From: Jimgerdemannia flammicorona
Taxonomy: Eukaryota
NCBI GenBank assembly: GCA_003990765.1
Contig: RBNJ01000160.1
Coordinates: forward strand, 1-38,528
Direction of reading: 5' to 3'
Length of the DNA stretch: 38,528 bases
Shown: piece by piece, positions 6,165 through 31,300 of the stretch
Layout of the letters: the number at the start of each line of letters is the position of its first letter
How positions within the stretch are numbered: position 1 is the stretch's first letter
Translations under genes and position numbers: made by a program
Notes under the pieces: generated by a model
What the model saw: the letters and a program-made list of their open reading frames with translations, nothing else
Databases searched by the model: none
What the model was told of the DNA's origin: nothing

Positions 6165-6940
6165 TTTTTTTTTTTTAACAGACTCAAGTTCTGTAAATTT
6201 TTATTGAAAGAAAATCTAGACTATAGGCCAAACCCCTCCTCCATCCCCTCACTGAGCACTATACCTCTATTAAACCTAGGCTAGCTATTTTTCAGCAGCT
6301 CAACTATATCAGATATAGCAGAGCTTATATTAGCCTATACCTTATTGTATATATTATACTCTCTCTACTATTAGGAGGAAAGTAACCATATATCTATAAC
6401 TAAAGACATATACTAAAAACTCTAATATATATACAAGACCATATCTAAACTAAATAAAATAGCCTCCACTGCTCCAAATAGAGTAATAGGTAAAGAAAAT
6501 CTCCTTAAGAAATATAGAATGATAAAAAGGACCTAGTTCTCTCTGATAAGATGAATAGAGAACTTATATATAAGGTGAGAGGAGATCTCTAATATCCCAC
6601 TACTCAAGTCTGCAGACCTTGATTATGTTACTATATTAGCTCTCAGTTCCAGTTAAGTATAGCCAAGACATCTGACCTGAGTAGTCTCAGGCCCCCTAGC
6701 AACCTTCAAATGATCAAGACCCAATCTCATATATTACTAAGAGCTGTCAAGAGTGATATCTACTATCTAACCACCCCATACCAATTAGAAGACTCTACTA
6801 ATATAGTACTCATCTCAGCTCTAATAACCATCACTAGTCTACTGGTTTACTATAATTACTCTTTCTCTTATTTATGATAGCCATCTCTTCTTCCATCCTA
6901 ACTCTACTCAAAAAATAGTTATCTATATCAGAACCATACT
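6165..6940 (-). mobile_element. Degenerate poly(A)-tailed repeat fragment (unclassified family X, probably the 3' end of a non-LTR element)
   Basis: T-run at ~6165-6177, with AATAAA ~25 nt upstream on the minus strand. Inverted homologue at 7335-8109. Confidence 0.55.
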
Positions 6941-6949
6941 TGCCAAGAA

Positions 6950-7230
6950 GCTTATCAAAGCTCAGAGAATACTATTATAGGTACTGAAAACCTGTAGGTA
7001 ATCTATACTAGCACTCAATATCTAGTTTATAATATATCAAGATAATACCTGGTTAGTGATAATAAAAGGAAGAAGGTGCTATACTAAAACAGATATATTT
7101 CAGATATAGTCAAAGATACTAAAAACTGTAAAAAAGTAGAGAAAGTACTGATTTAATACTGATAAAGAGATAATATATGTATTACTATTATCTCTCTTCT
7201 ACTACTTTACAATAGATACAGCAAATTAAC
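6950..7230 (+). repeat. Inverted degenerate copy of the putative LINE-A 5'UTR (5870-6165)
   Basis: For example aaaaggaagaaggtgctatactaaaacagatatatttcagatata (from ~7064) versus the rc of ~5986-6030, aaaaggaagaagatgctgtactaaaacaggtatattccagatata. Confidence 0.75.
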
Positions 7231-7334
7231 CCAAGATAGAGAAAGTATAGGTTATAGAAAGAAGACTCAAAAGATTATCTACCAAAATCTTATAATTAGT
7301 ATAGTAGTAGAGAAAAGTACTGACTTTAATAAGG

Positions 7335-8106
7335 GCACAGTTCTAATATAGATAACTGTTTTTTAGATAGTGTTAGAATAGAAGAAAAGATAGCTATCAC
7401 AGATTAGAGGAAGGATAATTATAGTAGACCAGTTAGATATCAGACTAGTGATAGTTATTGAGATTGTTAAATACTATATGTATCAGTGGGGCTTCTGATT
7501 AGTATAAGGTGGTTAAATAGTAGATATTACTCTCAGTAGCTCTTAGTGATAAGTGAGATTAGGCTTTAGTTATTTGAAATTATTGAGAGGCCTGAGACTA
7601 TCCAGATCAGATATTTAGACTATACTTAACTAGAACTAAGAGCTGATATAGTGATATAATTGAGACCTATAGGCTTGAGTAGTAAAATATTGAGGGTCTT
7701 CTTCTATCTTATATATAAGTTCTTTACTTATTCCATTAGGAAGAACTAGATCCTATCCACTATTTTATATCTTTTGGAGAATTTTATCTTTACCTGTTAC
7801 TCTATTTAGAGTAGTGAGAGCTTTGCTCTGGCTCTGATATAATCTTATATATATATTGGAGTTTTAGATATATGTTTTTAGTTATTAATATATAGTCACT
7901 TTCTCTTTAGTAATAGTGAGAATATATATACAGAATGAGGTATAGGCTAACTTAAGCCTTGCTATATCTAATATAGTAGAGTTACTAAACAATAGTAAGT
8001 CTAGATTAATAGAGATATAATATTTGGGGGGGAGAGTTGAGGGGGGGAATTTGGCCTATATAGTCTAGATTCTCTTCTAATAAAATTCTATGAGATATTA
8101 AGTCTG

Positions 8107-8109
<3 letters not shown>
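7335..8109 (+). mobile_element. Second copy of family X, ending in a (TA)n tail
   Basis: Aligns in inverted orientation to 6177-6940, differing mostly by transitions. AATAAA at ~8079, followed by the TA microsatellite. Confidence 0.6.
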
Positions 8110-8146
<37 letters not shown>

Positions 8147-8162
8147 TTATATATATTTATAA
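8108..8162. repeat. (TA)n microsatellite
   Basis: Direct TA run with a few TT interruptions. Confidence 0.95.
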
Positions 8163-8315
8163 TATTTAATCATTATTTATCAACAGTACTACTTAAGGCA
8201 AATATAAAAACAGATATAAATAATTATAATTAAAATATTTATAACTTATAAAATATTAAGATAATACAAATAAACTTTGATACAGAATGATAACTATTAT
8301 GAATCATTGAAGAGC

Positions 8316-9822
8316 TCATTGATGATCCTTTATCCTATACTTGCATTCTTGATATAAGGATACAGCAAAGTACACCTTGTCAGGGAGATCACTCCAGGCT
8401 GTCCCGTAATTGATCCCATTGATTGAAAGAGCACAGGTATGGTGATTTAAGTTTAAATGAAAGGTTATGACATCGCCATTTTCAATACGTTTGCCATATT
8501 TGACGTACTTCGTTCCAACTACCACAAAATTGGCAGTGCCTTCAGTATAAAAACTCCATGCATTTTGCAGATTTAAAATGCTATGGTCAAAATCGGTGAA
8601 TTTCTCTCCAACGAGCCCAAGCATACAGATGCCGTGGTTGCCATACGATCCAATGGATTCAACGACAATATCCCATTCGCATAAACCGTTGTGAACCTTC
8701 GTCCCGGGGACAGAAAGCCTTGCTGTCCATTGCGAAGTCCCCAATGGAAGCTCCACCACCTTGCCATCTTCTGAAACGACCACTAGGGGACCGATTTTCG
8801 ATCGATCCCACTGGAGATTGACACTGTGACCCGCCCCTCCGCGACTTGCAGACGGGTGACCGGTAGGGCATATGGTGTTTTTGCAGGCATGATGGCAAAA
8901 CGCCATGTAGTGTGGAGAGGTCTCCGCAAACGCGTCAACTGCCTCCACAAGGGTCTTGAGTCGATGTGGGCAGATGAGTGTGAGGTCAAAGTGGCTCATC
9001 ATTTTGAGCAGCAAGGCGCGCGACGCACTATCTCCAAGAGGAACCGTGCCGTCGCACCCCGCAACCATATCGTTGATGTCATGCAAAACAGCTCGACGCT
9101 CCGAAACCGACGGCGCGTTCGCGTTGCGTCCCCATACCCAGTCGACGACGCACAGCAAAAGATCGTGCTCTGACGTGGAAAGTGTGGCTGTCTCGGTGAG
9201 GAGTAGCTCGAGGGCCTCTTCGGAGAGATCGGTCAGCTCACCGACGGCAAGCTTGTGAGCACGGAAAGGATTGAGGAGCACGGTATAGAGGTCCTTGTTG
9301 GCTTCGCTCCATGGGATGGCAGCGACGGCTTCATTGAGAAGCGATGAGGCGACACCGAAATCAGCGAGGTCATGCGCGCGCTCCAGCACCATCTTCATGA
9401 GCTTCGGGAGGAGGAGAAAGTTCGCTGCGTGGTATATTCCTACCGCGACGGAAATGTTGACAGCATTATCGATGGTTTCGGTGTGAATGAAGCCAAGGAC
9501 GATGTTGAGCACTGTCGAGGTGATGTCGTTGAGGACGACGCGATGAGAGGAACCCTCTCGCATGTTCCCGTACAGCATTGCCTTGAAGACCGGGCATCTT
9601 TTAATAAACCACATGAACTCAAATATTAGGAAAGTGTCATAGGAAGTGATAAACTGTGTAAAAGAGTCGAAATCGGACAAACCTTGAAGCCAATACGGCA
9701 CGGCATGCGCCCACCTCGACGCCGTCAGCGCAGACGATGGTCACATCGTGATAAGTCGAGTCCTTCCAGATGGAGGCGATATCGTCCTTGAGGTTAAGAC
9801 CGCTGTCAGATTGCTCGACCAT
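8316..9822 (-). CDS. BTB/POZ-BACK-SPRY(B30.2) protein, copy 1 (~473 aa; exons 9822-9683, 9597-8316)
   Basis: BTB: DVTIVCADGVEVGACRAVLASR|CPVFKAML...FIHT. BACK: LSEEALELLL...EHDLLLCVVDW. SPRY: WDIVV...GLV...YGKRIENGDVITFHLNL...INGINYG...YFAVSL. An 85-nt GT-AG phase-2 intron restores the frame. Confidence 0.9.
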
Positions 9823-10644
9823 GTTTATAAAAGGGAGAGAAATAAAATGGATGGTCTCTGTTTTGGTATATCAGAATCGTGGCGCAGTGTTGACAAGGCT
9901 GGTAAAAACCATTTCGGCGTTACACATGGATTTAATTAATTATTGAACACACCTTCGATGTTGCAAATGTCGAGATTACTACAGCGTTGATCCTGCACAT
10001 GGAAATGGAGTGCATTGCGGAGCATCTAACTCAACGCATCGGATTGCGATGCCACGTCTTGATCATAAGCAGTGATTTACACTGTGTCTAGGCAGTTCAT
10101 GTGAAATAAAATACGAGCGCTTCACTTGATTCTGTGGTCTCTAATCCTCTAGTGCGCCAAACGACCCCAACAATTACGAGGGATACGTAGAGAACATGCT
10201 GAGGAAGCGACAGGAATACGTATATATGCTGATAATCTAAATTGTTGTTCCAGTTATTCTAATTACCAATTCCATGTAGTATAATATATCAAAAAAAAAA
10301 AAAAGTTATTTCGACCATTCAAACATTATTGGATATGCTAGTTAAAAGTTCGGCCCTGCCTCCATTGCTTACGGGTCAAGGTAGTTTGTGCTGCGTGGAA
10401 TATACGTTGAATTTCGCTCCGAAATCTGGATCGAATGCAAGAGTTCGAATATAGACTTTATATCCAATAGCATTTATTGTTAACATTCAATATCTACTTG
10501 ACAATGACTCTACTCAAGATGAATATAAAAGGCAGGAACTGGTATGAATAGTTACAGCTACAATATATATAACTCATTCAAGACATTACAAAATAGGATT
10601 TGATAACTATTGCTAAGCTAAGAGTGGACGCACCATTTATAACT

Positions 10645-12101
10645 TCATCGGCGATCCTTTATCCGATACTTACATCCTTGCCATAAAGAAACGGCAGGGT
10701 ATACCTTGTTAGGGAGATTGCTCCCGGCTATCCCGTGATTGATTCCATTGATCAAAACGGCAAAGGTGCGGTCATTTACATTTAAATGCAAGGTTATGAC
10801 ATCGCCCCTGTGAATACGTTTGCCATAATTATAATTCATACAATTTTTTTTGACTAAACGTAGTACAGTTTTCGTGGTTGTAGAAATAGAACCCCAATGA
10901 ATATCGCTAGGCTGACATGCTACTATCAAATTTGCGAATTTGTCTCCAATAAGCCCAATCATACAGACGCCGCGAGTGCTAACGGATTCAACGACAATGT
11001 CCCATTAGCAGAGACCGTTGTGAGCCTTCGTCCCGGGGAAAGAAAGCCGTGCTGTCTGTTCTGTCTTTGTCGAAGCCCCTGATGGAAGTTCCACAACCTG
11101 ACCATCTTCCGAAACGACCACTCGAGAACCGATTTTCCATCGATCCCACTGGAGGTCGACATTGTGACGCGCCTCTCCGCAACTTGCGGACGGATGACCT
11201 GTAGGGCATACGGTGTTCTTACAGGCGTGATGGTAAAACGCCATATAGTGTGGAGAAGTCTCCGCAAACGCATCAACTGCTTCTGTGAGGGTCTTGAGTC
11301 GATGCGAGCAAATGAGCGTGAGCTTAAAGTGGCTCATCATTTTGACCATCAAGGCGCGTGACGCACCATCTCCTAGCCGGACCGTGCTGTCGCACCCTGC
11401 AACCATATCGTTGATGTCATGCAGAACGGAACGGCGATCTGAAGACGACGGAGCGTTCTCGTTGCTTCCCCAGACCCAGTCGACGACGCACAGCAATAGT
11501 TCGTGCTCTGGCGTGGAAAGGGTGGCTGCCTCGGTGAGGGACTCTTCGGAAAGGTCAGTCAGCTCACCGATGGCAAGTTTGCGAGCGCGGAAGGGGTTGA
11601 GGAGCACATCCGTACAGGTTCTTGTTGGCTTCGCTCCACGGGATGGTGGCGACAGCTTCGTTGAGAAGCAATGAGGCGACACCAAAATTAGCAAGGTCGT
11701 GTGCGCGTTCTAGCACCACCTTCATGAGCTTCGGGAGGAGAGAAAGCTTGCCGAACGGTATATTCCTATGACGATGGAAATGTTGACGGTGTTAACGATG
11801 GTCTCGGTGTGAATGAAGCCGAGGAGGACGACGCGATGAATAACTCTCTGGCATATTTCCGTACAGCATCGCCTTGAAGACCGGGAATCTATTATTAGAT
11901 CATATGTAATAAAGTATGTGGAAAGTGTTATGAAAAGCGACAAACTGTGTAAGGGAATCGAATCGGACGAACCTTGAAGCGAGTATGGCACGGTACGCGC
12001 CTATCAGAGCAGACGATGGTCACATCGTGGTAGGTTGTGTCCTTCCAGATGGAGGCGATATCGTCCCTGACATTAAGACCGCTATCGGATCGCTCGACCA
12101 T
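10645..12101 (-). pseudogene. BTB-BACK-SPRY pseudogene, copy 2
   Basis: Collinear with copy 1, but with a frameshifting deletion in exon 1 (GVEV lost), a deletion in the BTB, and further frameshifts that split the protein over several ORFs. Confidence 0.88.
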
Positions 12102-13359: not shown

Positions 13360-15343
13360 TCAACCATGACGATTTGGTTGGATCTGTGCACTCTGCTCCA
13401 TGGAGCACCAGATCTCGAGCTCGTTATCGGGCTTCGCGAGGTGCTTTGCCACCGTCCAGTCTTCTTCGTCTGAGTGTGGATCGCGACGGGGGGACAAGAC
13501 AAGGCGAGGAAGGAAGTAGAAAAATTTGTGGATGGGAAAGACGGAGATGGCGAGAAGAATATAGACACTTTATAAATGAGAAAAGCAAAGCTGATGACGA
13601 AAGGGCTCTAACCCTCACCCGTCACAACCGACGTGTTCTCATTTCCGTACAAAATAACATCCTAACCAACCCCCACCCCCTTCCACTCTTTCTCTATCTG
13701 CTCTCGGACCTACCAGCGATGAAAACGGTTCTCCCCTTAGCCTCACGATACTTGACGCTCATGTATACAGGGTTATTAATGCGGAACTTGCGCTCCAGGT
13801 GAGCTAGGACGTCGGCAAAAGTAACGGATCCCGGGAGAATCAGGACGCGCGTGTCGTGCTGAAAGTTGCAAACAATGCGGAGCTACCGTGTAATGTGGGT
13901 GTGATCATTAGCAAATGAATCGAAATCGTAAAATCAGTTTCCTTCCCACCACCACACCCGCCGACCCACCCCATAAACCCACCATCTGCGGCAAATGCCT
14001 GCTCAACAAGACATCCAAGTTTGTCCCCTGCACCATCGGCGTCCCATCCGCACCGGCACCCGCAAGGGCTCCCTCATCTACCTCCTTACTCCTGACCGCA
14101 AAATACTTCAACGCGGCAGCCATAAGCCCAGAGCTCTGGCCTCCTTGCACATCCTGATTCGCTCCCCCCGCACTAGTAGTTGCAACCACATCGGCGGCCC
14201 CAAATAACCCGGCGCTGGTCCCGCCGACACTACCGACGGGTCTGGTAACAAACGGGCTAGTCTGGTCGAACACGGGGGCGGACGGGTAGGCGTCGAAGAT
14301 GGAGCTCGTGCTAGGCAGGGGAAGTGACTGAGGCGCAGTGCTAGAATTCGAGAGTGTACGGATTGGTTGGCCCTGCGCGAGATTGGAGAGAGACACTGTC
14401 AACGACTCCGTGGCGGGGAAGGCGGCGGGTGTAAAAGGATCGAGCGCAAACGATCTTCTCGATTGCGTCGGCATTCCATTTCCATTTCCATTCCCCATTC
14501 CATTCCCATTACCCAACCCCGAAGATTCAATCCTGGGTGTACTCATTCCTAAGTTAGTCGTGGGGGGTGGTGTGGTGGTTCCGGTTCCGGTCGCGCGACG
14601 CGGATTGACGACGAGCCGGTCGAGGTCGGAGGACACGGTATCCATCTCCATTTGCATGCGGGGCTTGCAGCCAACGGCACGGGCCATGGCGCGGTCGAGG
14701 GCTTCGAGGCGGAGCGCAGCTGTGACGTCTGAGAGATGAAGAGTAATATCTTGGGCTGTGTAGATTTGGCCGCGTGTCGGGTCTGTGTCGGTCATGTGGT
14801 GGGGGCGGGGGGTCGTGTGCGTAGTGGGTCCGAACTGGGAGGTGGATGTAATGAAGATGGAGTATAGAGACGCAATAGTTGAGGATTTTTCATGGAGGTA
14901 AATAACTGAGGGGTACCTTCAGTGACCTGATACCCAACGGGGGAGGGTGAAGTTGCAGCACCAAGCAGTTGTCCTGCCTGTAACGGAAGAAAAAAATAAG
15001 CATAAAGAATATATATAATGGCCCATTGAGGGCATTACATTTTACCTATTCACCAATAATCATATAGTTTCTTTCATTCTTTTCCACCTCCTCCCCTCCC
15101 CCCTCCCTCCCAACATTTTTCTGTGACTATTCCAGTCTTTAAGCTCGCAGAACACGTGACCAACAAGTCTAATATACGCCACCTTTGGTAATTCGATAGG
15201 GCCTCGAAGCAGAGTGACAACTCCTTCTCGCCAATGTAGATGGAGAAGGACTTGTTCTCCCAGCGTGGGACAAAGTTCAGACCGGAGCCTTGCCTGTTGA
15301 AGTGGCCGATAGTGACCTGGGTCAGTGGGATCTCGGTCGGCAT
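13360..15343 (-). CDS. ~450-aa protein with a globular N-terminal domain (possibly PH-like), a low-complexity S/T/P/G linker and a C-terminal PB1 domain; exons 15343-15183, 14977-14917, 14834-13983, 13882-13714, 13469-13360
   Basis: Four GT-AG introns give one continuous frame. The C-terminus LRIVCNFQHDTRVLILPGSVTFADVLAHLERKF...SVKYREAKGRTVFIADEEDWTVAKHLAKPDNELEIWC fits the PB1 pattern. Branch site GCTAAT in intron 3. Confidence 0.8.
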
Positions 15344-16808: not shown

Positions 16809-18333
16809 CTATCCAGATCCGGATCCACATCCAACCACCCTCGATGATGATATCCGATACTTGCATCCTTCACGTAGGGACACAGCAGGGTACACCTTGT
16901 TGGGAAGATTGGTCCAGGCTGTCCCGTAATTGATTCCGTTGATCGAAAGGGCACAGGTATGATCATTTAAATTTAAATGCAAGGTTATGACATCGCCATT
17001 TTGAATACGCTTGCCGTATTTTTTCTTTTTTGTTGCGACCGATATGTGTTGTTCGTCGCTGAAAGACTGGAAAGCCCATGCATACGGCTGTGCTGCCATA
17101 TGTCTATTAAAATATGTGTATTCTTCTCCAACGAGCCCAATTTCGCAGACGCGGTAGCTGCCTTGCGATTCAGTGGATTCAACGACAATATCCCATTCCC
17201 ATAGACCGTTGCGAGCCTTCATTCCTGGGACGGATAGTCGTGCTGTCTGTGGAGAAGCCCCCGATGGAAGTTCCACAACCTGACCATCTTCCGAAACGAC
17301 CACTCGAGAACCGATTTTCGATCGATCCCACTGGAAGACATTGTCATCTGCCTTTCCGCGACTTGCGGACGGATGACCTGTAGGGCATATGGTATTCTTG
17401 CAGGCGTGATGGCAAAACGCTATGTAGTGTGGAGAGGTCTCTGCAAACGTGTCGACTGCCTCCACGAGGGTCTTGAGTCGATGTGGGCAGATGAGCGTGA
17501 GGTCAAGGTGGCTCATCATTTTGAGCAGCAAGGCGCGCGAAGCACTATCTCCAAGAGGAACCGTGCCGTCGCACCCCACAACCATATCGTTGATGTCATG
17601 AAAAACCACTCGACGCTCCGAAACCGACGGCGCGTTCGCATTGCGTCCCCATACCCAGTCGACGACGCACAGTAACAGGTCGTGCTCTGGCGTGGAAATA
17701 GTGGTTGCTTCGGCGAGGAGCAGCTCGAGGGCCCCTTCGGAGAGATCCGTCAGCTCACCAATAGCGAGCTTGTGAGAGCGGAAGGGATTGAGGAGCACGT
17801 CATAGAGGTCCTCGTTAGTTTCGCTCCTAGGAATGGCGGCGACGGCTTCGTTGAGAAGCGACGAGGCGACACCAAAATCGGCGAGTTTGTACGTGCGTTC
17901 CACCACCATCTTCATGAGCTTCGGCAGGAGGAGAAAGCTTGCTGCACGGTATATTCCTACCGCAATGGAAATGTTGACGGTATTGTCGATGGTTTCGGTG
18001 TAAATAAAACCGAGGACAATGTGGAGCACTGCGGAGGTGATGTCGTTGAGCACGACGCGTTGAGAGGAACCCTCTTGCATGTTTCCGTACAGCATCGCCT
18101 TGAATACTGGGCATCTTTTAAGAAGCCGCATAAGTTAGGTGTGTGGAAAAACGGCGGACACAGCTCACCTGTGTAGAAAATCAAAACCGGACAAACCTTG
18201 AAGCCAGTACGGCACGGCACGCACCGAGTTCGACACCATCAGCGCAGGCGATGACCACATCGTGGTAGGTTGAATCCTTCCAGATGGAAGCGATGTCGTC
18301 TTTGAGAATAAGACCGCTGTCGTTCATGTTCAT
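16809..18333 (-). CDS. BTB-BACK-SPRY protein, copy 3 (~480 aa; exons 18333-18197, 18114-16809) with an altered C-terminal tail
   Basis: Same motifs and an 82-nt intron at the conserved position. Ends ...CKYRISSSRVVGCGSGSG instead of ...KDHQ/KDRRG. Confidence 0.9.
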
Positions 18334-19217
18334 GAAGGCGAGAGGAATATAGTGAGAATTCCGCTTTGTCTTGTATCTGAATCGTGGCGCAGCGTCGACA
18401 ACAATGAAGGAGCAAACCCATTTTCGCCGAACATTACGTGGCACACAGACCAACCTATTGAACAAATACTTGATGCATTTCTTATGTGCAAATGTCGAGA
18501 TTCCGGTATCATTAATCCGGCACATAAAAAGTGGACAGCATTGAAGAACGTCCAACCCAGCGCATGGCATCACGATGCCACACCCAGGCCCCCAGCGCTG
18601 CAAGTGGATATACATTGATCGCACGGAAAGGTAAAAATACATCATGAGAGTCAGTTGCATAAATTTTTTTGGTTAACACAGTTGATCTCTAGTTCTGCAA
18701 ACGGGGCCAACAACCACAAAGGACATGCCAACGAAGCGAAAGAAATTACCTGTGTGGGCTTAAAATATAAGCTGAGTCCTAATTGTTCAGTCTGTGCAGT
18801 AGTTTGCATGCAAACCAGAATTTCGGCCATTCAAAAATTCATTAGGAATGCTAGTCTTTGTTAAGCGTTTGGTCTGACCAGAACGCTTTCAGCGCTTATG
18901 TGCCAGTGTATTTGAGCTCCGTTTTGAGTGCGACGTTTATGGATTGAATGCATAGTGTAAAAATACTCTAGTGTAGTTCATTTTTATTTAGACATCTACT
19001 CTTAATGACAAACAGTAAAATTAATTATTTAAAATTTAAATTCTGTTTTGCCAACAGTACACAGTTAAGACATAAGTTAAAAATTAATGGATATAGCTAA
19101 AATATGTTCATCAATTCATAAAATATTTGGAAAATACAAAATGGACCTCACTATAGACTGACAATAGTATTCATATTGTTAAGCTAAACATAGATGAACC
19201 ATCGATGACATCATCAT

Positions 19218-20709
19218 TCAACCTCGCCGATCTTTTATCCGATACCTGCATCCTTCAAAAAAGGACACAGCAGGGTACACATTATTGGGGAGATTGCTCC
19301 AGGCTGTCCCGTAATTGACTCCGTTGATCGAAAGAGCACAGGTATGATCATTTAGGTTTAAATGCAAGGTTATAACATCGCCATTTTGAATGCGTGCGCC
19401 GTACTTGTTAGTTTTTTTTCCAACGAATGTAAAGTTTTCGTTGTTGAAGGACTGAAAAGCCCATGCACATTGCTTGGTTGCCATGTAATTTTCAAAATGT
19501 GCGAATTGCTCTCCAACGAGTCCAATTTGGCAGACGCCGGTGGTCTTGTGGGACCCAATGGATTCAACAACAATGTCCCATTCGCATAGGCCGTTGCCAT
19601 TTTTCGTTCCGGGGACGGCTAACCGTGCTGTCTGTATCGAATCCACCGAGAGCTCCACAACCTGGCCATCTTCCGAAACGACCACTTGAGAACCGATTTT
19701 CGATCGATCCCACTGGACATTGTGAGGCGCCTTTCCGCGGCTTTCGGACGGATGACCTGTAGGGCATACGGTGTTCTTGCAGGCATGATGGCAAAACGCC
19801 ATGTAGTGTGGAGAGGTCTCCGCAAGCGCGTCGACTGCCTTCGCAAGGGTCTTGAGTCGATGCGGGCAGATGAGCTTGAGGTCAAAATGGTTCATCATTT
19901 TGAGCAGTAAAGCGCGCGACGTGCCATCTCCAAGTCGGACCGTGCCGCTGCACCCCGCAACCATATCGTTTATGTCATGCATAACAACTCGACGCTCCGA
20001 AGCCGGCGGCGCGTTCTCGTTACGTCCCCAGACCCAGTCGACGACGCACAGCAATAGGTCGTGCTCGGGCGTGGAAAGAGTGGCTGCCTCGGTAAGGAGC
20101 AGTTCGAGGGACTGTTCGGAGAGGTCGTTCAGCTCGCCGATAACGAGCTTGTGAGCGCGGAAGGGTTTAAAGAGCACGTCGTAGAGGTCTTTGTTGGCTT
20201 CGCTCCAGGGGATGGCGGCGATAGCTTCGTTGAGAAGCGATGACGCGACACCGAAGTCCGTGAGGTCGTGCGCACGCTCTAGCACCATCTTCATGAGCTT
20301 CGAGAGGAGAAGAAAGCTTGCCGCGCGGTATATTCCTACCGCAATGGAAATGTCGACAGCGTCATCAATGGTTTCGGTGTGAATAAAGCCGAGGACAATG
20401 TTGAGCACCGCGGAGGTGATATCGTTGAGCACGACGCGCTGAGAGGAACCCTCTCGCATGTTTCCGTACAGCATCGCTTTGAATACCGGGCATCTTTGAG
20501 AGACCGTATAAATTAGGTGTGTGGAAAAACGGCGGACACAACGTAACGGTAAGAAAATAAAACTGGACAAACCTTGAAGCCAGTACGGCACGGCACGCGC
20601 CGAGTTCGACACCGTCAGCACAGACGATGACCACATCGTGGTAGGTTGAGTCCTTCCAGATGGAAGCGATATCGTCTTTGAGACTAAGACCGCTGTCGTT
20701 CATGTTCAT
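19218..20709 (-). CDS. BTB-BACK-SPRY protein, copy 4 (~470 aa; exons 20709-20573, 20493-19218)
   Basis: Same motifs, 79-nt intron at the conserved position, uninterrupted frame. Confidence 0.9.
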
Positions 20710-21244
20710 GAAGGCGAGAGAAGTGTTCTGATTTGAATGGTCGACTTGTAATTTTGGCTGAGAAAGGAATTCCGTTCTGTTTGGTATATAGTATTTGACT
20801 AAGCCTATTTGACTAAGCCTCCGTTGTTACACAACGGTCTCCAAGTCGCGAGATAGACTTCGTCTATCTCTGTATCGTGGCGCAGCGTCGACAAGGTTTT
20901 TGCTGTCAAAGTAACGATGGACGGAGCAAAAAACCGCCATTTTCGCCGAACACTACGCGGCACACTTTTTATACATTTCTTATGTGCAAATGTCGAGATT
21001 CCTGTATCGTTGATTTGGCACATGAAATCGGACTGCATTGAAGAACCTAGGTCTCCAGTGCTAAAGTTGATAAAAATATAATCAGATTTATGAATTTTTT
21101 TTTTTTTTTCCCCAAATTATATCAATATTTAATTATATAACTTATAAAAATATTAAGAAAATACAACATAGACTTCAATACAGACTAATGATATTATCTA
21201 TATTGCTAGACTAAATCCAAACAGATTATCTATGATATAATCAT

Positions 21245-22501
21245 TTAGCCTTGACAACCTTTTATCTGATACTTACATCCTATCATATAAATATAGTAAA
21301 ATACACCATATTGGGGAGATTTTTCCAGACTGTCCCTTGATTGATTCTGTTGATTGAATGAGCACAGATATGGTCATTTATGTTTAAATGCAAAGTTATA
21401 ATATCACCATTTTGAATACGTTTGCCATAATCACGCTCTCCTCTTTTTGCAAACACTCTGTGACTGCAGTTGCTGGACTGGAAAGCCCATGCACATGGTA
21501 ATTATTGAAATGTGTGAATTCCTCTCCCACGAACCCAATCATAGAGATGTCGCCAACGCTTTGTGATCCAATGGATTCAACGACATGTCCCATTCGCATA
21601 GACCGTTGTGAGCCTTCGTTCCGAGAACAGAAAGCCGTGCTGTCTGTCTTGTCCGTGGCGAAATTCCTCCACAACTTGACCATCTTCCGAAACGACTACT
21701 TGAGAACCGATTTTCGATCGATCCCACTGGAGACTAGCATCGTGACGCGCCTTTCCGCGACGTAGGGCACGCGGTGCAAGATGGCAAAACACCATAGAGG
21801 TCCACAAACGTGTCGACTGCCTCCACGAGGGTCTTGAATCGATGTGGGCAGACGAGCGTGAGGTCAAAGTCATCATTTTGAGCAGCAAGGCGCGCGACGT
21901 ACCATCTCCAAACCGAATCGTGCCGTCGCACCCTGCAACCATATCGTTAATGTCATGCAAAACTACACGGCGTTCCGAAGCCGACGGCGCGTTCTCGTTA
22001 CGTCCAAAACCCAATCGATGACGCACAGCAACAGGTCGTGCTCGAGGGCCGACACCAAAATCGGCGAGGTCGTGCGCGCGTTCCACCACCATCTTCATGA
22101 GTTTCGGTAGGAGGAGAAAGCTTGCTGCGCGGTATACTCCTACCGCGATGGAAATTTTGACAGCGTTGTCAATGGTTTCGGTGTGAATGAAGCCGAGGAC
22201 ACCGCGGAGGTGATGTCGTTGAGCACGACACGTTGAGACCTCTCGCATGTTTTCCGTAAAGCATCGCCTGGAAGACTGGGCATCTTTAAGAGACCATATG
22301 AAATTAGGTGTGTGAAAATACGACGGACACAACTAAACTGTGTAAGAAACTTAAAATCGGTCACCTTGAAGCCAGTACGGCGCGGCACGCACCGAGCTCG
22401 ACACCGCCAGCGCAGACGATGATCACATCGTGGTAGGTTGGGTCCATTCAGATAGAGGCGATGTCGTCCTTGGGACTAAGACTACTTTCGATCATGTCCA
22501 T
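21245..22501 (-). pseudogene. BTB-BACK-SPRY pseudogene, copy 5
   Basis: TGG>TGA in exon 1 (~22448), a ~170-180-nt deletion between DFGV and EHDLL (~22045), several frameshifts and a CpG-depleted 3' end. Confidence 0.9.
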
Positions 22502-23404
22502 AAAAGCGAGAGAAATAAAAAGTTCTATTGAGGTGTGAATTCGCCTGTGGAAAGAATCTCTTTCTATCTGAATCGTGGCGCAAAGCATCGTTGCGCAAGA
22601 CCATTGCGCATGCTCGCCGATCGCAAGTCACAACAGCAAGACCCTTTATACAAAAACTTCTAGGTAATCCGAAAGTCCACTATCCTTAGCACGCAATTGA
22701 CGACCGAACTATATGATGAACGACTTAGGTGCAAAATGTCAGGATGCCAGCATCGCCGATCCAGCACATGGAAAGGGGGGACCTTTATAGAGCATCCAAC
22801 GCAACGCCTAGGCCTTCAGCACTGCATATTGTCCGTGTAGGCAATGCAGATAATAAAATTGCACACACTTCACGTCATTTTGAATATCAGTTACATGAAA
22901 CTTTTTAACAGCTTCAACGGAACTAACAACTACAAATTATGTGCAAGGATCATGTTGACAAAGAGAAAGAGATGGCATCTATATGTTGAAAATTTAAGCT
23001 GAAATCTCAGAGTTCCCAATTACCAAATCTACTCAATAGAACGCCTGGAGGACGGAATTTCGACCATTAAAGGTTCTTGTCTTGGCTAACATTGTGCCGC
23101 TTTCAGAACCTATAGGTCAGGATAATTGAACTGCATGAAATGTAAACCTGATTATGGATTGAATATATAAGCCTGGTGCAGTTATATATCTCATTATGAA
23201 ATTCAAAAGTTTATCATGATAACATTTAATCATTATTTTGTCGACAGAACTACTTATGCTGAATATATAAGATATGTCAGATATATATGACTATACTGCT
23301 CACAAAATGTTAGGACAACCATAATAGACTTTTTTTTAATACAAAACAATGAAAGTATTTATAATACTAAGCTAGAAGCGATAAACAATTCATGATCCCA
23401 TAAT

Positions 23405-24902
23405 TCAGCCACGATGATCTTTTATGCGATATTTGCACTGTGCATATAAAGTCACAGCAGGATATACCTTGTCGGGGAGATTTGTCCAGGCTGTCCCGTA
23501 ATTGATTCCGTTGATCGAAAGGGCACAGCTATGCTCATTTAGGTTTAAATGCAAGGTTATGACGTCTCCGTTTTGAATACGTTTACCGTATTTGACAGTC
23601 TTTAATCCGACCAATGTACGTTGCTCGTCGTTGAAGGACTGGAAAGCCCATGCATACGGCCGGGTTGACATGTAACTATCAAAATGTGTGAATTCTTCTC
23701 CAACGAGTCCAATCTCGCAGACGCCGTAGTTCCTGTGGGACCCAATGGATTCAGCGACAATATCCCATTCGCATATATCGCTGTGAACCTTTGTTCCGGG
23801 AACGGAAAGCCGTACGGTCTGTTTCGGTGCCCTCAATGGACGCTCCACAACCTGGCCATTTTCCGTAACAATCAATTGAGAACCGATTTTTGATCGATCC
23901 CACTGGAGACTGGCCTTTCCGCGACTTGCGGACGGATGACCCGTAGAGCATACAGTGTTCTTGCAGGCGTGATGACAAAACGCCATGTAGTGTGGAGAGG
24001 TCTCCACAAACGTGTCGACTGCCTCCGCGAGGGTCTTGAGTCGATGCGGGCAGATAAGCGTGAGATCAAAGTGGCTCATCATTTTGAGCAGCAAAGCGCG
24101 CGATGCGCCATCTCCAAGCCGGACCATGCCGTCGCACCCAGCAACCATGTCGTTAATGTCATGTAAAACAGCATGACGCTCCAAAGCCGATGGCGCGTTC
24201 TCGTTGCGTCCCCAAACCCAGTCGACGACGCACAGTAACAGGTCGTGCTCGGGCGTGGAAAGAGTGGCTGCCTCGGCGAGGAGCAGTTCGAGGGCCTCTT
24301 CGGAGAGATCGTTCAGCTCACCAATGGCGAGCTTGTGAGCGCCGAAGAGATTGAGGAGCACGTCGTAGAGGTCTTTGTTAGTTTCGCTCCAGGGGATGGC
24401 GGCGACGGCTTCGTTGAGAAGCGATGAGGCGACACCAAAATCAGCGAGGTCGTGCGCGCGCTCCAGCACCATCTTCATGAGCTTCGGGAGAAGGAGGAAG
24501 CTTGCTGCGCGATATATTTCTATTGCAATGGAAATGTTGACAGCGTCGTCAATGGTTTCGGTGTGGATGAAACCGAGGACAACGTTAAGCACCGCGGAGG
24601 TGATGTCGTTGAAGACGACGCGTTGAGAGAACCCCTCTCGCATGTTTCCATACAGCATCGCCTTAAAGACTGGGCATCTTTCAAGAGGCCAAATGAAATT
24701 AGGTATGTGGAAAGTGTATAAAGAAGTATGGACACAACTAAACTGTGTAAGAAAATTGAAATAGTACGAACCTTGAAGCCATTACGGCACGACATGCGCC
24801 TAGCTCGACACCGTCAGCACAGACGATGGTCACATCGTGGTAGGTTGGGTCCTTCCAGATGGAGGCGATATCGTCCCTGAGACTAAGCCCGCTGTCAATC
24901 AT
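23405..24902 (-). CDS. BTB-BACK-SPRY protein, copy 6 (~467 aa; exons 24902-24772, 24677-23405)
   Basis: Same motifs, 94-nt intron at the conserved position, uninterrupted frame. Confidence 0.9.
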
Positions 24903-24984: not shown

Positions 24985-25518
24985 CGAAAGTGTCTGGGGG
25001 ACATGAAATTAAAATGGCATTCGGGCGTTTTTCCTATGTAGAAGAGCGGTGAGACAGCAACGATGAAAAGTACGATGACGTCATCGAATCCCCACGAATC
25101 CGAAGTCTCTGAGAATGAGATTTTCCTTAGCTCGGTATATTTTGAAGAAACATGGTGAATTCTAGCGAAGCGGGATGTAATGATTTGGCGAATTTGTTTA
25201 TGGATTCCCTCGGTCGATTCGCTATTTAGATTTTGTCATATACTATTCTTGTTTTCTTTTCTATCCTCCTTTCCATCTACCTCACATACATTACCTTACA
25301 ACCCTCCTTCCCTACTCTGCTTCTACCTTCCTCCTTTAATATATGATGTAAGATATACAATTGACATAACAATAGTGATAAACTTTCTTTAGTTCAGATG
25401 TGAATAGTATTACTTTATTGGGGTGAATAATCTCTGAATAAGACAGCCAAATACTAGTCATATTATTTAGAATATATATTAATTTATAAAGAGCTATATA
25501 AATCTTATTAAACTATAT

Positions 25519-26971
25519 CCTGCAGGAGAGGTGGTGCAGTATCTGGGCATCTTCCTCTCAGTATATGGATCTGTCCTCCCACAGGTATGGTGGGAGAGGA
25601 GGGTGGCTATCTGAAGAGAGGCTCTTAGAAGTTGGGGAGGTTGCCACATCTCGCTAGCAGGCCAGGTATCAATTCTGAATGTCTACTGGTTCTCTAAGCT
25701 ATAGTATATTACTTATCACTTAGACTTCTCAGCTTGGGTGATGAAGAGGCTAATGAAGATAGCTAGGGCTTAGATTTGGGCTGGAAGGTAGTCTTAGATC
25801 AGTTGGGATACCCTATTATTGCCAGTGGTGAGAGGAGGGCTAGGACTGGTGGATCTTCCTAAGAGGCTCCACAGCCTGAGAGCTTGGTGGCTGAAGCAGA
25901 CTGCTGAACTACAGAGAGTGAGATGGATGCTACTGATGCAGAAGGTGTGGGAGATAAGGTTCTCTCCAAGAGGGTCCTTGGGAGACTTGCTATCATTGGT
26001 GGGTCTGGGTGGGAGCCATTGGTTAAGATATAAAGGCTTCTGATAGGGGATAGTAGATGGAGCTCACCATATTGGTTTACACTGACATAGTAATGAAGGG
26101 GAGATACTGTAGAGTTCAGAGATATGGAGATGGAACAGACTGCTATTAGGGGGTGCTCTACTGATTGAGTTTAACATTAGTGATGGAGTGGAGTATCAGA
26201 GGGGATTGGGTCAGAATACATATCTGGCCTGATAGTTGGCAAGTAGTGAGGATTAGTGAGGAGTGGGACTGGGCAGGAGTCTGGTCATGGAGTGCTGAGA
26301 TGAGGAGGTGGCTTTCTCCCAAGTTCTGAGTAGTATGGTGGAGGATTCTTCAGAGAAATGTCATATTGAATTTCCATGCTGGGTATCTAGTAGATGGGAA
26401 AAGACTGGACTATGAGGAGTGTTATAATATTGGACAAATTGGAGGATTTGTACAGATACCAGAACATTGACTAGGAGAGTGTAAGGTTCTGAGAGACTTT
26501 TGGTTAGCAGTAGATAGATGGTTGGAGGTTAAGAGAAGATCAGATAGAGAGAGAGTTCAATGGGAAGATTTGAGAACTAGGTTGGTAGGAGGTGTGAGCA
26601 ATGACTGGCTCACTGTAGAGTGGGTTTTAGCTATATGGGTAAGGTTGGCTGGACATTGGCTCTTCATTTTTGAGAAGGGGCAACAGATGGATCTACAAGA
26701 AAAGTTATTAAGATGGGAGGGGTTGTTGGGAGATTTATTGACAGGGTGGTAGGTGGGTTGGGGTCTCTAGAGTGGGTACTATCACTATCTAGTAGAAGGA
26801 ATCTGTGAATAGAGTGGTAGATAGATTGCAATGGTTAATGACTTGGTGATCTTTAATTATGATACATAAGATGGAGAGAGGAGGGCCCTCTAGGGGAATC
26901 AGATAGAGGTGGGCTCAATATATTTATATCAGATAGATGGGTGTATTAATAAAGAATAGAGTCTAAGAGAC

Positions 26972-27037
<66 letters not shown>
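25519..27037 (+). mobile_element. 5'-truncated LINE (LINE-B), related to LINE-A, with an A63 tail
   Basis: Begins at GEVVQYLGI (end of RT) and follows LINE-A ORF2 to its end with many stops. AATAAA at ~26948, poly(A) 26975-27037. Possible TSD AAACTAT (25510-25516 / 27035-27041). Confidence 0.92.
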
Positions 27038-27039
<2 letters not shown>

Positions 27040-27236
27040 ATTTATATTTATAATAGGTTTTTTTTTAAGAGAAGCTTACTTATAGATAAGAATAACTTCT
27101 GCTACTATCAAATTATAATAAAACTATATACTAATATAATTAATATATTACAGATAATTAGAATTAACTATTAGCTCTAAGTTCTGAGTTTTTATGAGAA
27201 AGTACTAAGTTTCAATTATCTGTTGTAGTGGTGTAG

Positions 27237-27490
27237 TCTAAGTATTACTTTTGAGATCTTGTTCTGAAAAAATATACTGTGCTTGTCTCCTAAGTTATGT
27301 AATTAGGCTTAGAAGTATTAACAAGATAGATCTGAGAGTTCTGTAATAAGAATACTACTTTATTCTTATATTTAGAGAAAGTAGAGCTGAGATTATATAT
27401 AATATACTTAGTATAGAGAGTATTTATACAGATTCAAATTATAATTAAATATAGTATATTGAGTATATCTATATATTATAGTATATCTGA
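27237..27490. repeat. Degenerate repeat arm, inverted relative to 34365-34612
   Basis: taataagaatactactttattcttatattta (~27344-27374) is the reverse complement of ~34477-34507. Similarity extends ~250 bp. Confidence 0.75.
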
Positions 27491-28359
27491 CTTAATAGAG
27501 GTAAATTACAAGATTGGAGATTAGTGTAGTTTGGCTTAAGCCCTCAGTTACTTTGTCAAAAAGCAATAAAATGTTTTAAGATTTCTGATATTCTTGATGT
27601 TTAGTAGTATAATAGTTAAAGCTAGATATCTGCAAGTAATTCTGGCAATTTCCTTATTGGGATAGATTCTTGGGTTTGAGTGGTGATTTGCATATAGTGT
27701 AAGTAGTTTCCTTATATGATTTCTGTATAATGATCTCTCATATAGTATGATGATCTCTATATAGTATGGTAATCTCCAAAAGTGTGTAATTTCTGATATG
27801 ATGATCTTGGCAGTATTTCATATTTAGCAGAGAACTCAATTTGGTAAATAACTCAGATAACTCAAAAATGACAAATGATGCAGATTCTTTCTGAATCAAT
27901 AAGCAAGAAGACAACTCTGAATATATCTACCTATAAGGAAAAATTGAAAGAAATTCTATTGAAGTCCTCATTAACAGTAAAGCAAGTAAGCATTATTTTG
28001 ATAAGACTACTGATAAGTTTAGACTCAAGATATAAAAAAACTCAGAAGAAAACATTACTATATTTAACTTAGAAACTTTTAAAAATCTATAAGAATGTAC
28101 TCCTTTATCTAGAAGACTATACTACAAAGTAGATCTTCTATATTGTATATCTTTTAGAATATAATCTCATCTTTGAAAAATTCTGACTCATTTAAGAAAG
28201 TTCATATATTTACTAGTAAACCAATATAATCTTCCTAGAACATATTAAGTTATAGTCAGAATAGATCAAGAAGAAAGTAAAACCCAATATAACATCTCTT
28301 TCAGATATATTTTATATTATATAAATATATATCAATATATTTTACATAGTTTTTTAATA

Positions 28360-31300
28360 AAAGAGAAGATTGGAAGAGTGAGCTTTATGGACAAAGTCAA
28401 GGCTGGAGACCAGTCAGCAGGTCTGGATGAATAACTGTAGAGGGGAAGAAGATATGGGCTATAGGTCCTGGGGGGGTGGCTCTGGGCAGTAGTAGTAGTA
28501 GGGCTGAGAGAGTAGTGGCTAGAGAAGAGAGAAGAACTGCTGATGAGAAGATGACTATTAATCTGATAAAAATTCAAATATGATAGCTGATGGCAGTAGA
28601 GAGGCATGAGGTCCAGAGACTTAGCAGATAGTATAATAGACCTGGTAGTAACACTATTACTCAAGAAATCAGTATCTGAATTTATAGTCACTTTGTACTT
28701 CCAAGGCTTAAAAGTTTCTAAAGTGACTGGAGGAGGTCAAGGTAGACTTTGAGGAGGAGGATTTGATGCTGAGAGTACTATAGAAAGGAGTAGTAGTCAG
28801 GGGTATAGTAATCTCTATAGTGAGATACTTATATTGGGACCCCCAAATAGTTTAGCTAGTGATAGCTAATATATCTATAGTGAAGAAGAAGGAGACCAGG
28901 AGGTTGATTTTCAATACTGTCAAGGAGTATGGGGATATTGTAGATATTCTAAAAGGGTATATATAGAGTTTAGGACAGAGGATGTGGATATTAGGCTAAG
29001 GCTGATGGAAAAGGAAAATATAAAGTAGGAGAGAGATTGGTCAGTAGTACTGAAGTAAGAGCTAGTGAAGTACAAGGTTTCAAGGGTAAAGAAAATGCTG
29101 GAGGAGGAGGAGGATTTTCTGGAGACATTGAAAGATCTAACAGAAGTAATAGAGAGAAGACAGTGAGTATAAAAGGAGTTTGAGACTAGGATAGTGATAG
29201 AGATTATTAATAGTAAGAGGGTATATCAAGATCAAACTCCTTGAGAGAGAGCTTAAAGAAGGTAGCAGTAGAGGAATTTATTGGTAGGTTTGGAAGAGGA
29301 GTTAAAGGAGGTAGATATCACTAAGGAAGTTGGTTCAAGGGCCAGTGCCTGGATAGGAGAGAAGATGATGACTCAAGTAGAGGTCCTGGAGAAGGGTATA
29401 GTTTAAGAGTAGAATATAGTAGCTAAAGATAAGGTGATGACAGAAGGGGCTCAAGTTTGATATGGAGCTCCAACAGTAGGGGGGGGGGGAATGATAAGCT
29501 GTAGGATATACTAGAGGAGGACTGGGATAAGTTGGTAAGAATGAATACTGATGGAGGTCAGAGAGTGGCTCTGAGAGTGGGGAAGATAATTGGAGATAAG
29601 AAATAATTATAGAAGGCACTAATGAATATTGCAGCTGATGAGTTGGGAGAGGTTGATTTTTGTATTGTTAGTGAGATATACTGGAGTACTGTCTTATGAG
29701 GTGAGAATATAGTGTGAAAGCTTCAGAATAAGTTAATAGTAACTCTTTTGAAGACAGATAAGTACAAGATTGATGAGAATAGAGAAACAGTACTGAAAAT
29801 TATAAATGAGTATATAGCTTACCTATAGGGCCTAAGGAGGGAGTTAGCAAAATGGCAAATAGTATATGAGAAATACAGGTCTTTCATAGAGATACAGGAT
29901 AGAGAGAACTATCTAGAGATATTGATAGCTCTGGATGCTCAGTAGAGAGAGATAGATGAGCTTAAGACTGAGAGGAACTTGGATGTAACTAGTAATATAG
30001 TAAGTATGGAATTGTAGAATAAGAGGATCTTCTATATATATTATTCAATATGAATAATATAACTAGAATCTTCTCTTTAAATGTTAATAAGTTATAGAGG
30101 GCAGTGAGATAGCAGGACATTTCTCTTAATTGAAGGGGCTAGATACTGATCTGTTTTTGCTTCAGAATATAGGATATTATGAGGACTTAGATATACAGGA
30201 CTGGATGAGAGAATAGAGGAGGAGTAGTAGTATAGAAGGGCAGAGTGGACATTATAATTAAAAGAGAAAAAGGGGACATTGGGGATATTAGACATTGGGA
30301 GAGCAGAGTAGTGTAGGGAACATTGAAGAAAGTAGGTTAGGGCCTGATAGTAGTCAGGTCCTGCTATGGTCCAGTGGAAAGAGCAGCTCAATTAGAGTAG
30401 ATATGTAGATTTCAGAACTCAGGCAGACTGGTGGAGACAGGGATTAATTATCTGGGTGGGGACTTCAATATAGTTTATAATGACAAACTGGACAGGACTA
30501 ATGATGGGAGGAGATTGGCTGAGAGAAGTATGGGAATAGAGAGTTGATAGGAGATTAAAAGACTTATATAGCTCTCTAGTGGATACTAACTGACAGGAGT
30601 AGAAAGATTACCAGATTTATACTCACTGAGTAGATGGGCTTAGCTCTCAGATTGACTGGATTCTGACTGCTGAGTGCTGAGGGGGTAATATCTGGAGATA
30701 CTAGAGACTGTTTGATATCTATAATCTAATCATTAAGGCCTCCTGAGGCATGGAAGGTTTGGAGAGAGGAGGGAGAGATCTGGATATTTATCTGAATACT
30801 TTCTTATTAGATGAACCCTCTCTGTAGGATATCTGGGTAGTGGATATTAGATCTAGAGTTCTTAGTTAGTATGTGGCAGGCCTTACTATTGGAGATCAGT
30901 AATATCAGCTAAAGTCTATACTCAACTTTTCTAGGAAAAGGCAGAGAGAGTATAGAGTACTCAAAGATAGTACTATATATGGTAGATCTTATGCTAATTG
31001 AAAGAGTTGTTGTCAGAGTAAACTGGACTGCTGGAGGATAAGAAGATAGTAGATTAGAGAGTTTAGCATATCAGGCTAGAGGTGGAGTTTGCTATAGAGA
31101 GAGAAAGATATATAAGTAAAGAGTATAGTGGTCAGGCTATAGTAGTAAGGGCTGGAGGAGAAGAGATGGCCTACAAAGTTTTTGTCAAGGCTTCTTCAGG
31201 TGAGGAGAGTGTGACAGAAGTAGGATAGAGTATTGAATGAGTTAGAAGAACTGATGATGGAGACTCAGAATATCTTGAATCAATTGAGTAAGTGCTGGGG

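Follow-up and report, generated by a model that had tools for sequence, protein, structure and literature searches.

Variation among tandem BTB-SPRY paralogs of Jimgerdemannia flammicorona is clustered in SPRY segments that change at a nearly neutral rate

When the paralogs of a tandem array differ mostly in a few short stretches of one domain, does this reflect diversifying selection on a ligand-binding face? The question is raised by contig RBNJ01000160.1 of Jimgerdemannia flammicorona (assembly GCA_003990765.1), whose 38,528 nucleotides (nt) were analysed as a whole and are called here the window. It carries six head-to-tail paralogs on the minus strand, at ~8.3-24.9 kilobases (kb), all of them with two exons and a BTB–helical–SPRY architecture. 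A first-pass annotation of this DNA, made from its letters, had described variation in discrete SPRY segments resembling the variable loops of TRIM5, set on a nearly invariant BTB-BACK scaffold, and had taken the pattern as that of diversifying selection. We observed that the clustering is real and that the ratio of non-synonymous (dN) to synonymous (dS) divergence in the segments, omega, is ~1, a value that clearly exceeds the scaffold's and that no robust test places above neutrality; diversifying selection at these loops is possible, not shown. On balance, we consider it probable that the locus is a birth-and-death array of putative Cullin-3 (Cul3)-type BTB-SPRY adaptors with diverging substrate loops.

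Gene models were built from a six-way DNA alignment and a splice-site search, which placed in each gene a single GT..AG intron of 79-94 nt after codon 44-47, depending on the copy. The introns are short and fungal-like, and the DNA of the window is eukaryotic. Four of the six copies (c1, c3, c4, and c6) are intact, while c2 and c5 are decayed pseudogenes, as given below.

8316-9822, minus strand: c1, intact, 473 residues; exon 1 9683-9822, intron 9598-9682 (85 nt, GT..AG), exon 2 8316-9597.
~10648-12087, minus strand: c2, pseudogene, delimited by tblastn/blastn, the DNA alignment, the list of open reading frames (ORFs), and projection on the c4 frame.
16809-18333, minus strand: c3, intact, 480 residues; exon 1 18197-18333, intron 18115-18196 (82 nt), exon 2 16809-18114.
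19218-20709, minus strand: c4, intact, 470 residues, the copy singled out in the first-pass annotation; exon 1 20573-20709, intron 20494-20572 (79 nt), exon 2 19218-20493.
~21147-22514, minus strand: c5, heavily decayed pseudogene, delimited by tblastn/blastn, the DNA alignment, and projection on the c4 frame.
23405-24902, minus strand: c6, intact, 467 residues; exon 1 24772-24902, intron 24678-24771 (94 nt), exon 2 23405-24677.

The lesions of c2 are out-of-frame deletions and insertions together with 33-nt and 12-nt deletions, and an in-frame TAA stands in place of the Glu codon of the conserved 'EWD'. In the SPRY part of c2 (10648-11004) indels of -1 and +10 nt restore the downstream SPRY frame and thereby leave an ORF open over 119 codons, in which the third of the variable segments described below is read in a shifted frame between these two indels. 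In c5 exon 1 contains a stop, the 5′ splice site is damaged, ~180 nt are missing from the middle region, and the SPRY part has several frameshifts.

The N-terminal BTB domain (Pfam PF00651) was detected in c1 (30.4 bits, E 4.9e-7), c3 (38.1 bits), and c4 (30.6 bits) above the cut-off of 20.5 bits, that is, in three of the four submitted copies; c6 gave no BTB match, but its submitted ORF started at an internal Met. The outside homologs scored 39-70 bits for the same domain. The SPRY domain (PF00622) was found at the C-terminus of c3 (44.9 bits), c4 (40.6 bits), and c6 (34.1 bits), three of the four intact copies thus exceeding the cut-off of 26.3 bits, with c1 just under it at 24.2 bits. To place the variable positions on the fold we used an AlphaFold2 model of c4 exon 2 (425 residues, 57-row alignment), whose predicted local distance difference test score (pLDDT) averaged 91.1. 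In this model the region between BTB and SPRY is all-helical, and the C-terminal part folds as a β-sandwich. Comparison of the C-terminal 170 residues with solved structures by VIA-align gave Z 24.1 for the RanBP10 SPRY domain (root mean square deviation (rmsd) 2.2 Å, 169 aligned residues), 22.8 for TRIM67, 22.0 for Ash2L, and 20.4 for SPSB2, where model residues 255/256-424 lay on chain residues 39/40-218 (rmsd 2.1-2.2 Å, 157-158 aligned). Among the 50 entries listed all had Z of at least 18.2, and all were SPRY or B30.2 domains except 2e63, a NEUZ domain. The best Foldseek match was likewise a B30.2 domain, that of TRIM67 (E 5e-14, target template-modelling score (TMt) 0.87).

The interval 19218-19720 on the minus strand, which the first-pass annotation had assigned to the variable SPRY region, is indeed the SPRY-coding end of c4, whose stop codon ends at 19218, and the peptide strings that it had listed for copies 1, 3, 4, 6, and 2 all proved exact. 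The features of this end of the gene are as follows, with the equivalent loops of SPSB2 being approximate.

19230-19715, minus strand: SPRY domain of c4 (residues 261-422 of exon 2), with ~15 strands forming a β-sandwich, placed by translation check and the secondary structure of the model.
19629-19652, minus strand: variable segment 1 (LSVDSIQT in c4), in the β3-β4 loop, with an indel; about SPSB2 loop B (Arg68, Pro70-Gln73).
19524-19559, minus strand: variable segment 2 (IGSHKTTGVCQI in c4), at the tip of the β5-β7 hairpin; about SPSB2 loop C (Thr102).
19407-19505, minus strand: variable segment 3 (33 codons), comprising the long β7-β8 loop (about SPSB2 loop D, Tyr120-Ser128) and the exposed strands β8-β10.
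19251-19262, minus strand: variable segment 4 (FFEG in c4), in the β14-β15 loop; about SPSB2 loop E (Val206-Gln209).
19716-19745, minus strand: a fifth variable, indel-bearing patch in the linker just upstream of SPRY (alignment columns 299-311, pLDDT 67-68), which was absent from the first-pass annotation.

We counted the variable columns among the four intact copies. In the BTB domain 30 of 131 columns varied and in the middle helical region 45 of 165, so that the scaffold, earlier called nearly invariant, was overstated in this respect (23-27% of columns vary). The SPRY domain had 84 variable columns out of 165, and these were unevenly spread: 48 of 58 columns varied in the four segments vs 36 of 107 in the rest of the domain. 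When the order of SPRY columns was permuted (n=10,000), the variance of window means reached the observed value in 0/10,000 permutations, the maximum window gave p=0.0002 and runs gave p=0.0006, while the lag-1 autocorrelation of variability was 0.39. These permutations establish that the clustering is real, and on this point the first-pass annotation was right. SPRY loops outside the segments varied in 23 of 47 columns and had an omega of 0.33 vs 0.91 in the segments (likelihood ratio test (LRT), p=0.004), strands having 0.20; the variability is thus not a generic property of loops, though the segments had been chosen for their variability. The segments were also the least conserved part in the seven closest outside homologs, where identity to c4 was 0.12 vs 0.43 and inserted residues numbered 75 vs 28, segment 3 being variable in length. 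The four intact copies align across the segments with a single one-codon gap, in frame.

The positions of the segments are suggestive of a binding surface. The published pocket residues of SPSB2 are Arg68, Pro70-Gln73, Thr102, Tyr120, and Val206-Gln209 (PMC11203437), and its termini and loops A-E are on opposite faces (PMC2923778). We mapped these residues on the model by interpolating between the end-point offsets of the alignment, +216 N-terminally and +206 C-terminally. By this interpolation SPSB2 68-73 falls at model residues ~284-289 vs segment 1 at 282-289, residue 102 at 308-318 vs segment 2 at 313-324, residue 120 at 326-336 vs segment 3 starting from 331, and residues 206-209 at 412-415 vs segment 4 at 412-415. 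The model thus supports, approximately, a placement of the segments at loops B-E, the canonical peptide-binding loops of SPRY domains, which share one face in SPSB2. The long β7-β8 loop has pLDDT 97-98, which suggests a structured element. A correspondence of the segments with the regions v1-v4 of TRIM5 is presumed by us.

Pairwise dN/dS by the Nei-Gojobori method (NG86) was 0.23-0.32 over the whole gene (dS 0.39-0.56), with 0.10-0.16 in BTB, 0.14-0.28 in the middle region, and 0.17-0.27 in the SPRY framework, and it rose to 0.54-0.92 in the pooled segments (dN 0.32-0.67, dS 0.49-1.04). Segment dN was not above the divergence of non-coding DNA, which amounted to 0.50-0.78 in the 3′ flank (Jukes-Cantor distance) and 0.22-0.70 in the intron. 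Maximum likelihood (ML) estimates were obtained with a purpose-written GY94/F3x4 program, which behaved as expected on simulated data. For the four intact copies the framework had an omega of 0.25 vs 1.24 for the segments, a model with two omegas fitting far better than one with a single omega (twice the difference in log likelihood (2ΔlnL) 85.8), and on the protein-guided alignment the segment value was not different from 1 (p=0.18). Given their own rate (1.56×) in this four-copy analysis, the segments fell to an omega of 0.91; across the four-, five-, and six-copy versions own-rate values were 1.06-1.26, and segments analysed alone gave 1.05-1.22, not different from 1. With shared rate or branch lengths segment omega was 1.24-1.62, significantly exceeding 1 only on DNA-projected alignments (four, five, and six copies; p 0.042-0.0003). 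The synonymous rate was 1.4-2.0× higher in the segments, the multiplier being non-significant (p 0.07-0.12). Hence, set against the bound of dN/dS<=1 named in the first-pass annotation, the estimates from the segments (0.54-0.92 by NG86, 0.91-1.26 by ML with their own synonymous rate), together with the non-significant site models for intact copies given below, did not bear out the claim of diversifying selection.

A Sawyer-type runs test revealed gene-conversion tracts, as the first-pass annotation had suggested testing for. Exon 1 and the intron hold one between c3 and c4 (p=0.002), where the two differ by 5.5-9% vs 14-27% for other pairs. The middle region holds another, between c1 and c3, which diverge there by 3-5% (p=0.026). 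A third, between c2 and c3 (p=0.0002), occupies alignment columns 1155-1213, where SPRY coding starts, immediately 5′ of segment 1. The tracts thus lie mainly 5′ of the variable segments, and no significant tract overlaps the segments. The tree topologies differ as well, since in the N-terminal part a (c1,c3) grouping is favoured by ~17 units of log likelihood (lnL) and the SPRY part forms a star-like tree in which c1 diverges most. Taken together, the tracts and the differing topologies indicate that the gene is a mosaic. Homogenisation of the 5′ parts exaggerates the contrast between an 'invariant' scaffold and variable loops. Mosaic structure and recombination are, moreover, a known source of false positives in site models.

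Sustained diversifying selection on the SPRY ligand-binding face, as in TRIM5alpha, finTRIM, and nematode MATH-BTB proteins, would imply dN>dS at a subset of loop sites and a recognition repertoire against pathogens, transposons, or other non-self; we regard it as a serious though unlikely alternative. In its favour, segment omega under shared branch lengths exceeds 1 in the ML estimates given above, and every M2a/M8 fit contained a class with a point-estimate omega of 1.8-4.5 in 10-25% of SPRY sites. The asymmetry of omega between the substrate domain and BTB also fits the pattern of MATH-BTB and F-box proteins, as far as the relevant part of PMC4334554 describes it. The tests themselves were divided. 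For the SPRY part of the four intact copies nothing was significant (M1a/M2a 2ΔlnL 2.38, p=0.30; M7/M8 p=0.27; M8a/M8 p=0.12), and own-rate pooled estimates (0.91-1.26) straddle 1. The whole gene on one tree gave p=0.004-0.015 (M7/M8 p=0.004), but the LRT was 0 once the two halves were allowed separate branch lengths, a partitioning that improves lnL by ~61 units, and whole-gene site models were therefore rejected as evidence. Addition of the pseudogenes to the SPRY part brought significance as well (p=0.012 with c2, p=0.0002 with c5, and p=3e-5 for M1a/M2a with all six copies), and the six-copy result survived when pseudogene tips were fixed at omega=1 (p=5e-4) and when the doubtful region was masked in addition (p=0.007). 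In the six-copy fit with neutral pseudogene tips, eight of the nine sites with posterior >0.7 lay inside the segments, the candidates being c4 residues 329 and 332 in segment 1, 364 in segment 2, and 400, 402, 405, 407, and 408 in segment 3. Against this, the six-copy LRT dropped to 1.8 (p=0.41) with two site-rate classes in both null and alternative, a conservative test because rate classes can absorb a non-synonymous excess; and the segments alone with their own branch lengths, significant in six copies (p=0.015), gave p=0.145 and omega 1.07 when the pseudogene tips were neutral. The six-copy site models were hence rejected as proof, since their result hinges on the pseudogenes and on a common site rate. 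The site-model check proposed in the first-pass annotation thus turned out positive only with a single whole-gene tree or with pseudogenes added, and the signal was lost with partitioned branch lengths or site-rate classes. We take this as a methodological caution: site-model 'positive selection' here stems from one tree and one synonymous rate imposed on a mosaic gene.

To judge what the four intact copies could have revealed, we simulated data on their tree. When 15% of sites were given omega=3, the LRT was larger than the observed one in every one of the 22 replicates and reached significance in 15 of them; with neutral loops none of 22 was significant and four of 22 reached the observed LRT. 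Strong, pervasive positive selection is thus disfavoured for the intact copies; a weaker or episodic adaptive component in them is possible.

Our favoured reading, the birth-and-death array of putative adaptors, combines these observations. By domain logic the proteins would be Cullin-3-type substrate adaptors, in which the BTB domain presumably dimerises and docks the ligase, and the C-terminal SPRY β-sandwich would grip the substrate with loops on its side facing away from the termini, judging from its likeness to SPSB, RanBP9, and Ash2L. The paralogs differ chiefly in four SPRY segments approximately coinciding with the canonical binding loops, and given this position each copy most likely recognises a different ligand. 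These segments change at about the neutral rate (omega ~1) while purifying selection holds the framework (0.2-0.3), the other loops (0.33), and BTB (0.10-0.16), and gene conversion has homogenised mainly the parts 5′ of the segments. An omega of ~1 may accordingly be a mixture of constraint relaxed after duplication and some episodic adaptive change in specificity-determining loops; a TRIM5-like arms race is possible, not shown.

Several points weigh against this reading. The six-copy M1a/M2a results, with and without neutral tips, make it possible that the adaptive component is stronger than the reading allows. Two of the six copies are dead, and the family may be decaying rather than diversifying. 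The mapping on SPSB2 derives from alignment end-points and not from residue-level pairing, and loops C and D could be off by up to ~10 residues. Variability was itself the criterion by which the segments were picked, which biases their omega upward. Finally, BACK (PF07707), a part of the first-pass label that found no counterpart in Pfam, had no match at E<=5 in the middle region of c4 exon 2 or in four outside homologs. Searches of the Atlas bear on the same region: the clusters that look like the BTB-SPRY protein are annotated BTB+BACK+SPRY, and 66-100% of their members carry BACK.

Pure relaxed constraint, or genomic drift, would have it that the loops tolerate almost any residue and that the copies are redundant, partly decaying duplicates devoid of paralog-specific function. 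The facts that no analysis in which the segments had their own synonymous rate could statistically tell their omega from 1, that segment dN is no greater than non-coding divergence, that two of six copies are pseudogenes, and that the segments tolerate indels across the family all agree with it, and genomic drift has been proposed for F-box adaptor families (PMC3030570). We nevertheless find it improbable. Four frames have stayed intact at dS 0.39-0.56 under strong purifying selection on BTB and the SPRY framework; the constraint on non-segment loops (omega 0.33, p=0.004) makes the variability specific to the loops that match the canonical binding site; a conserved binding scaffold is hard to explain if the binding loops are irrelevant; and the long β7-β8 loop is predicted to be structured (pLDDT 97-98).

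A more specific idea, which we rate slightly lower still and entertain as a speculation, is that of a non-animal, TRIM5-like repertoire of Cul3-BTB-SPRY receptors whose hypervariable loops would bind fast-evolving non-self or selfish targets, such as proteins of the flanking retroelements, viruses, or parasites, for ubiquitination. If true, a domain combination for which our full-text search found no publication would here make up an innate-immunity-type system; that search on BTB-SPRY returned only one paper, and it was unrelated. An artefact, in which misalignment, compensated frameshifts, or a patchy gene conversion sparing the segments would mimic hypervariability, is very improbable and largely excluded for the intact copies: conversion tracts exist, synonymous rate is 1.4-2.0× higher in the segments, and c2 carries a compensated frameshift across segment 3, but the intact copies align there with one in-frame one-codon gap, the rate multiplier is modest and non-significant (p 0.07-0.12), and the amino-acid divergence of the segments goes far beyond a 1.5-fold difference in rate (omega 0.9-1.2 vs 0.25).

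Compared with known systems, the array varies a known evolutionary theme by a new combination of domains. With the B30.2 (PRY-SPRY) domains of TRIM5alpha and finTRIM it shares the SPRY-type β-sandwich and variation in discrete loops that form a ligand-binding surface (here a predicted one), and with finTRIM also tandem clusters showing duplication and recombination, as the part of PMC2657112 drawn on here describes. The array proteins differ in having BTB and a helical region and lacking a RING, a B-box, and a coiled coil; no Pfam match was obtained for RING or B-box in these proteins, nor for PRY at E<=5, and with BTB and helices at the N-terminus they were rejected as members of the TRIM/RBCC (TRIM5-like) family. 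The same part of PMC2657112 gives positive selection in finTRIM at p<0.001, whereas no robust test gave significant positive selection in the array. The MATH-BTB (BATH) and F-box families of Caenorhabditis elegans and plants are similarly tandem, expanded, birth-and-death families of adaptors (putative adaptors in the array), in which, in the portion of PMC4334554 cited here, the substrate domain evolves fast and alone shows positive selection while the Cullin-binding domain is conserved; the array has omega 0.10-0.16 in BTB vs ~1 in the segments. Here, in contrast, the substrate domain is a C-terminal SPRY and not MATH, for which no Pfam match was found, strong positive selection was not shown, and the family is small; membership in MATH-BTB was accordingly rejected on domain content.

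SPSB1-4/GUSTAVUS proteins, which join SPRY to a SOCS box and are Cullin-5 adaptors, are like the array in being SPRY substrate receptors of a cullin ligase (putatively so in the array; structural Z 20.4) and in carrying, in the parts of PMC11203437 and PMC2923778 used here, pocket loops on the face opposite the termini, approximately where the array has its variable segments. The array proteins end 2-13 residues past the last SPRY strand (13 in c3), with no SOCS box after SPRY, and so they were rejected as SPSB members; the module that would dock the ligase is instead the N-terminal BTB. The SPSB pocket is conserved for one motif (D/E-I/L-N-N-N), whereas the array loops differ between paralogs. 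The SPRY domains of RanBP9/RanBP10 (CTLH/GID E3) and Ash2L, which are used to bind peptides, come nearest among solved structures (Z 24.1 and 23.9) and in sequence (phmmer E 8e-6); unlike the array, these proteins are single-copy and conserved, have LisH-CTLH or PHD-WH-SPRY arrangements without BTB, and form no diversifying array. The BTB-BACK-Kelch (KLHL/KBTBD) Cul3 adaptors share an N-terminal BTB, a helical region, and a C-terminal β-rich substrate-binding domain (putative in the array), and differ in having a Kelch propeller in place of SPRY and in BACK, which Pfam did not detect in the array copies.

Expanded families of cullin adaptors in which the substrate domain evolves fast (MATH-BTB, F-box, TRIM B30.2) are candidates for a role in innate immunity or conflict, and a BTB-SPRY version in a non-vertebrate eukaryote would extend this theme to a new domain combination. 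As it stands, the locus shows ordinary-looking paralog divergence: the pattern is real, and an amino-acid excess over neutral expectation, which would make the case remarkable, was obtained in no robust test. Paralogs with the same scaffold and different loops nevertheless offer a compact natural set for mapping SPRY specificity.

The wider family is small in public proteins: a search of 1.84 billion cluster representatives gave 243 with E<=1e-3 and 18 with E<=1e-30. As relatives for dN/dS none of the 243 with the SPRY part came closer than ~50%, a separate homolog search yielded four at 40-49% identity, and none was usable. Atlas clusters resembling the BTB-SPRY protein were commonest in Nematoda, Mucoromycota, and Haptophyta. 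The sole locus in a scan of metagenomes was a 1.9-kb contig, whose positions 1703-1921 encode a stretch sharing 70% identity with residues 1-74 of c4 exon 2, in the BTB part; this indicates that relatives of the BTB-SPRY family occur in environmental DNA. When the whole 425-residue model was compared by Foldseek with a 447-residue chain of the Toxoplasma pre-conoid ring determined by cryo-electron microscopy (9ya0_KE), the alignment spanned 464 columns with 13% identity and a query template-modelling score (TMq) of 0.45; this chain is possibly a further protein of the BTB-helical-β type.

A conserved block (~20968-21046 for c4, 18470-18549 for c3, and 9962-10017 for c1; 80-85% identity) precedes their start codons by ~260-340 nt. 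It is a block which in c4 has the TATA-like end 'TATAAAAAG' and which is probably a shared core promoter or 5′ untranslated region of the paralogs. Between c2 and c3 there is an ORF at 13908-14795 on the minus strand (295 residues), low in complexity and rich in Gly, Asn, Thr, and Pro, with a 12-nt tandem repeat (14472-14520); no Pfam family was found for it. A (TA)n microsatellite follows directly downstream of c1 (8107-8168).

The array is flanked by remnants of retroelements. A reverse-transcriptase ORF (RVT_1, E 1e-28) lies at 1173-2252 on the minus strand, and at the end of the window an open aspartyl-protease and dUTPase ORF (37634-38527, plus strand) looks like a pol fragment of a long terminal repeat retroelement. 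Both flanks (1-8000 and 25301-38528) are extremely depleted of CpG, with observed/expected ratios of 0.20, 0.00, 0.06, and 0.29 by block vs 1.11 in the gene array, and they are strongly asymmetric between strands (C 0.374 and G 0.149 in 1-6000; C 0.113 and G 0.249 in 25301-33500). This composition looks like the outcome of repeat-targeted cytosine methylation and deamination or of a process like repeat-induced point mutation. The tandem genes, 76-84% identical to each other, do not carry the CpG depletion and strand asymmetry of the flanks. The two flank blocks have in common a 1.1-kb stretch of 66.5% identity in inverted orientation, and a perfect poly(A) run of 63 nt is present at 26975-27037.

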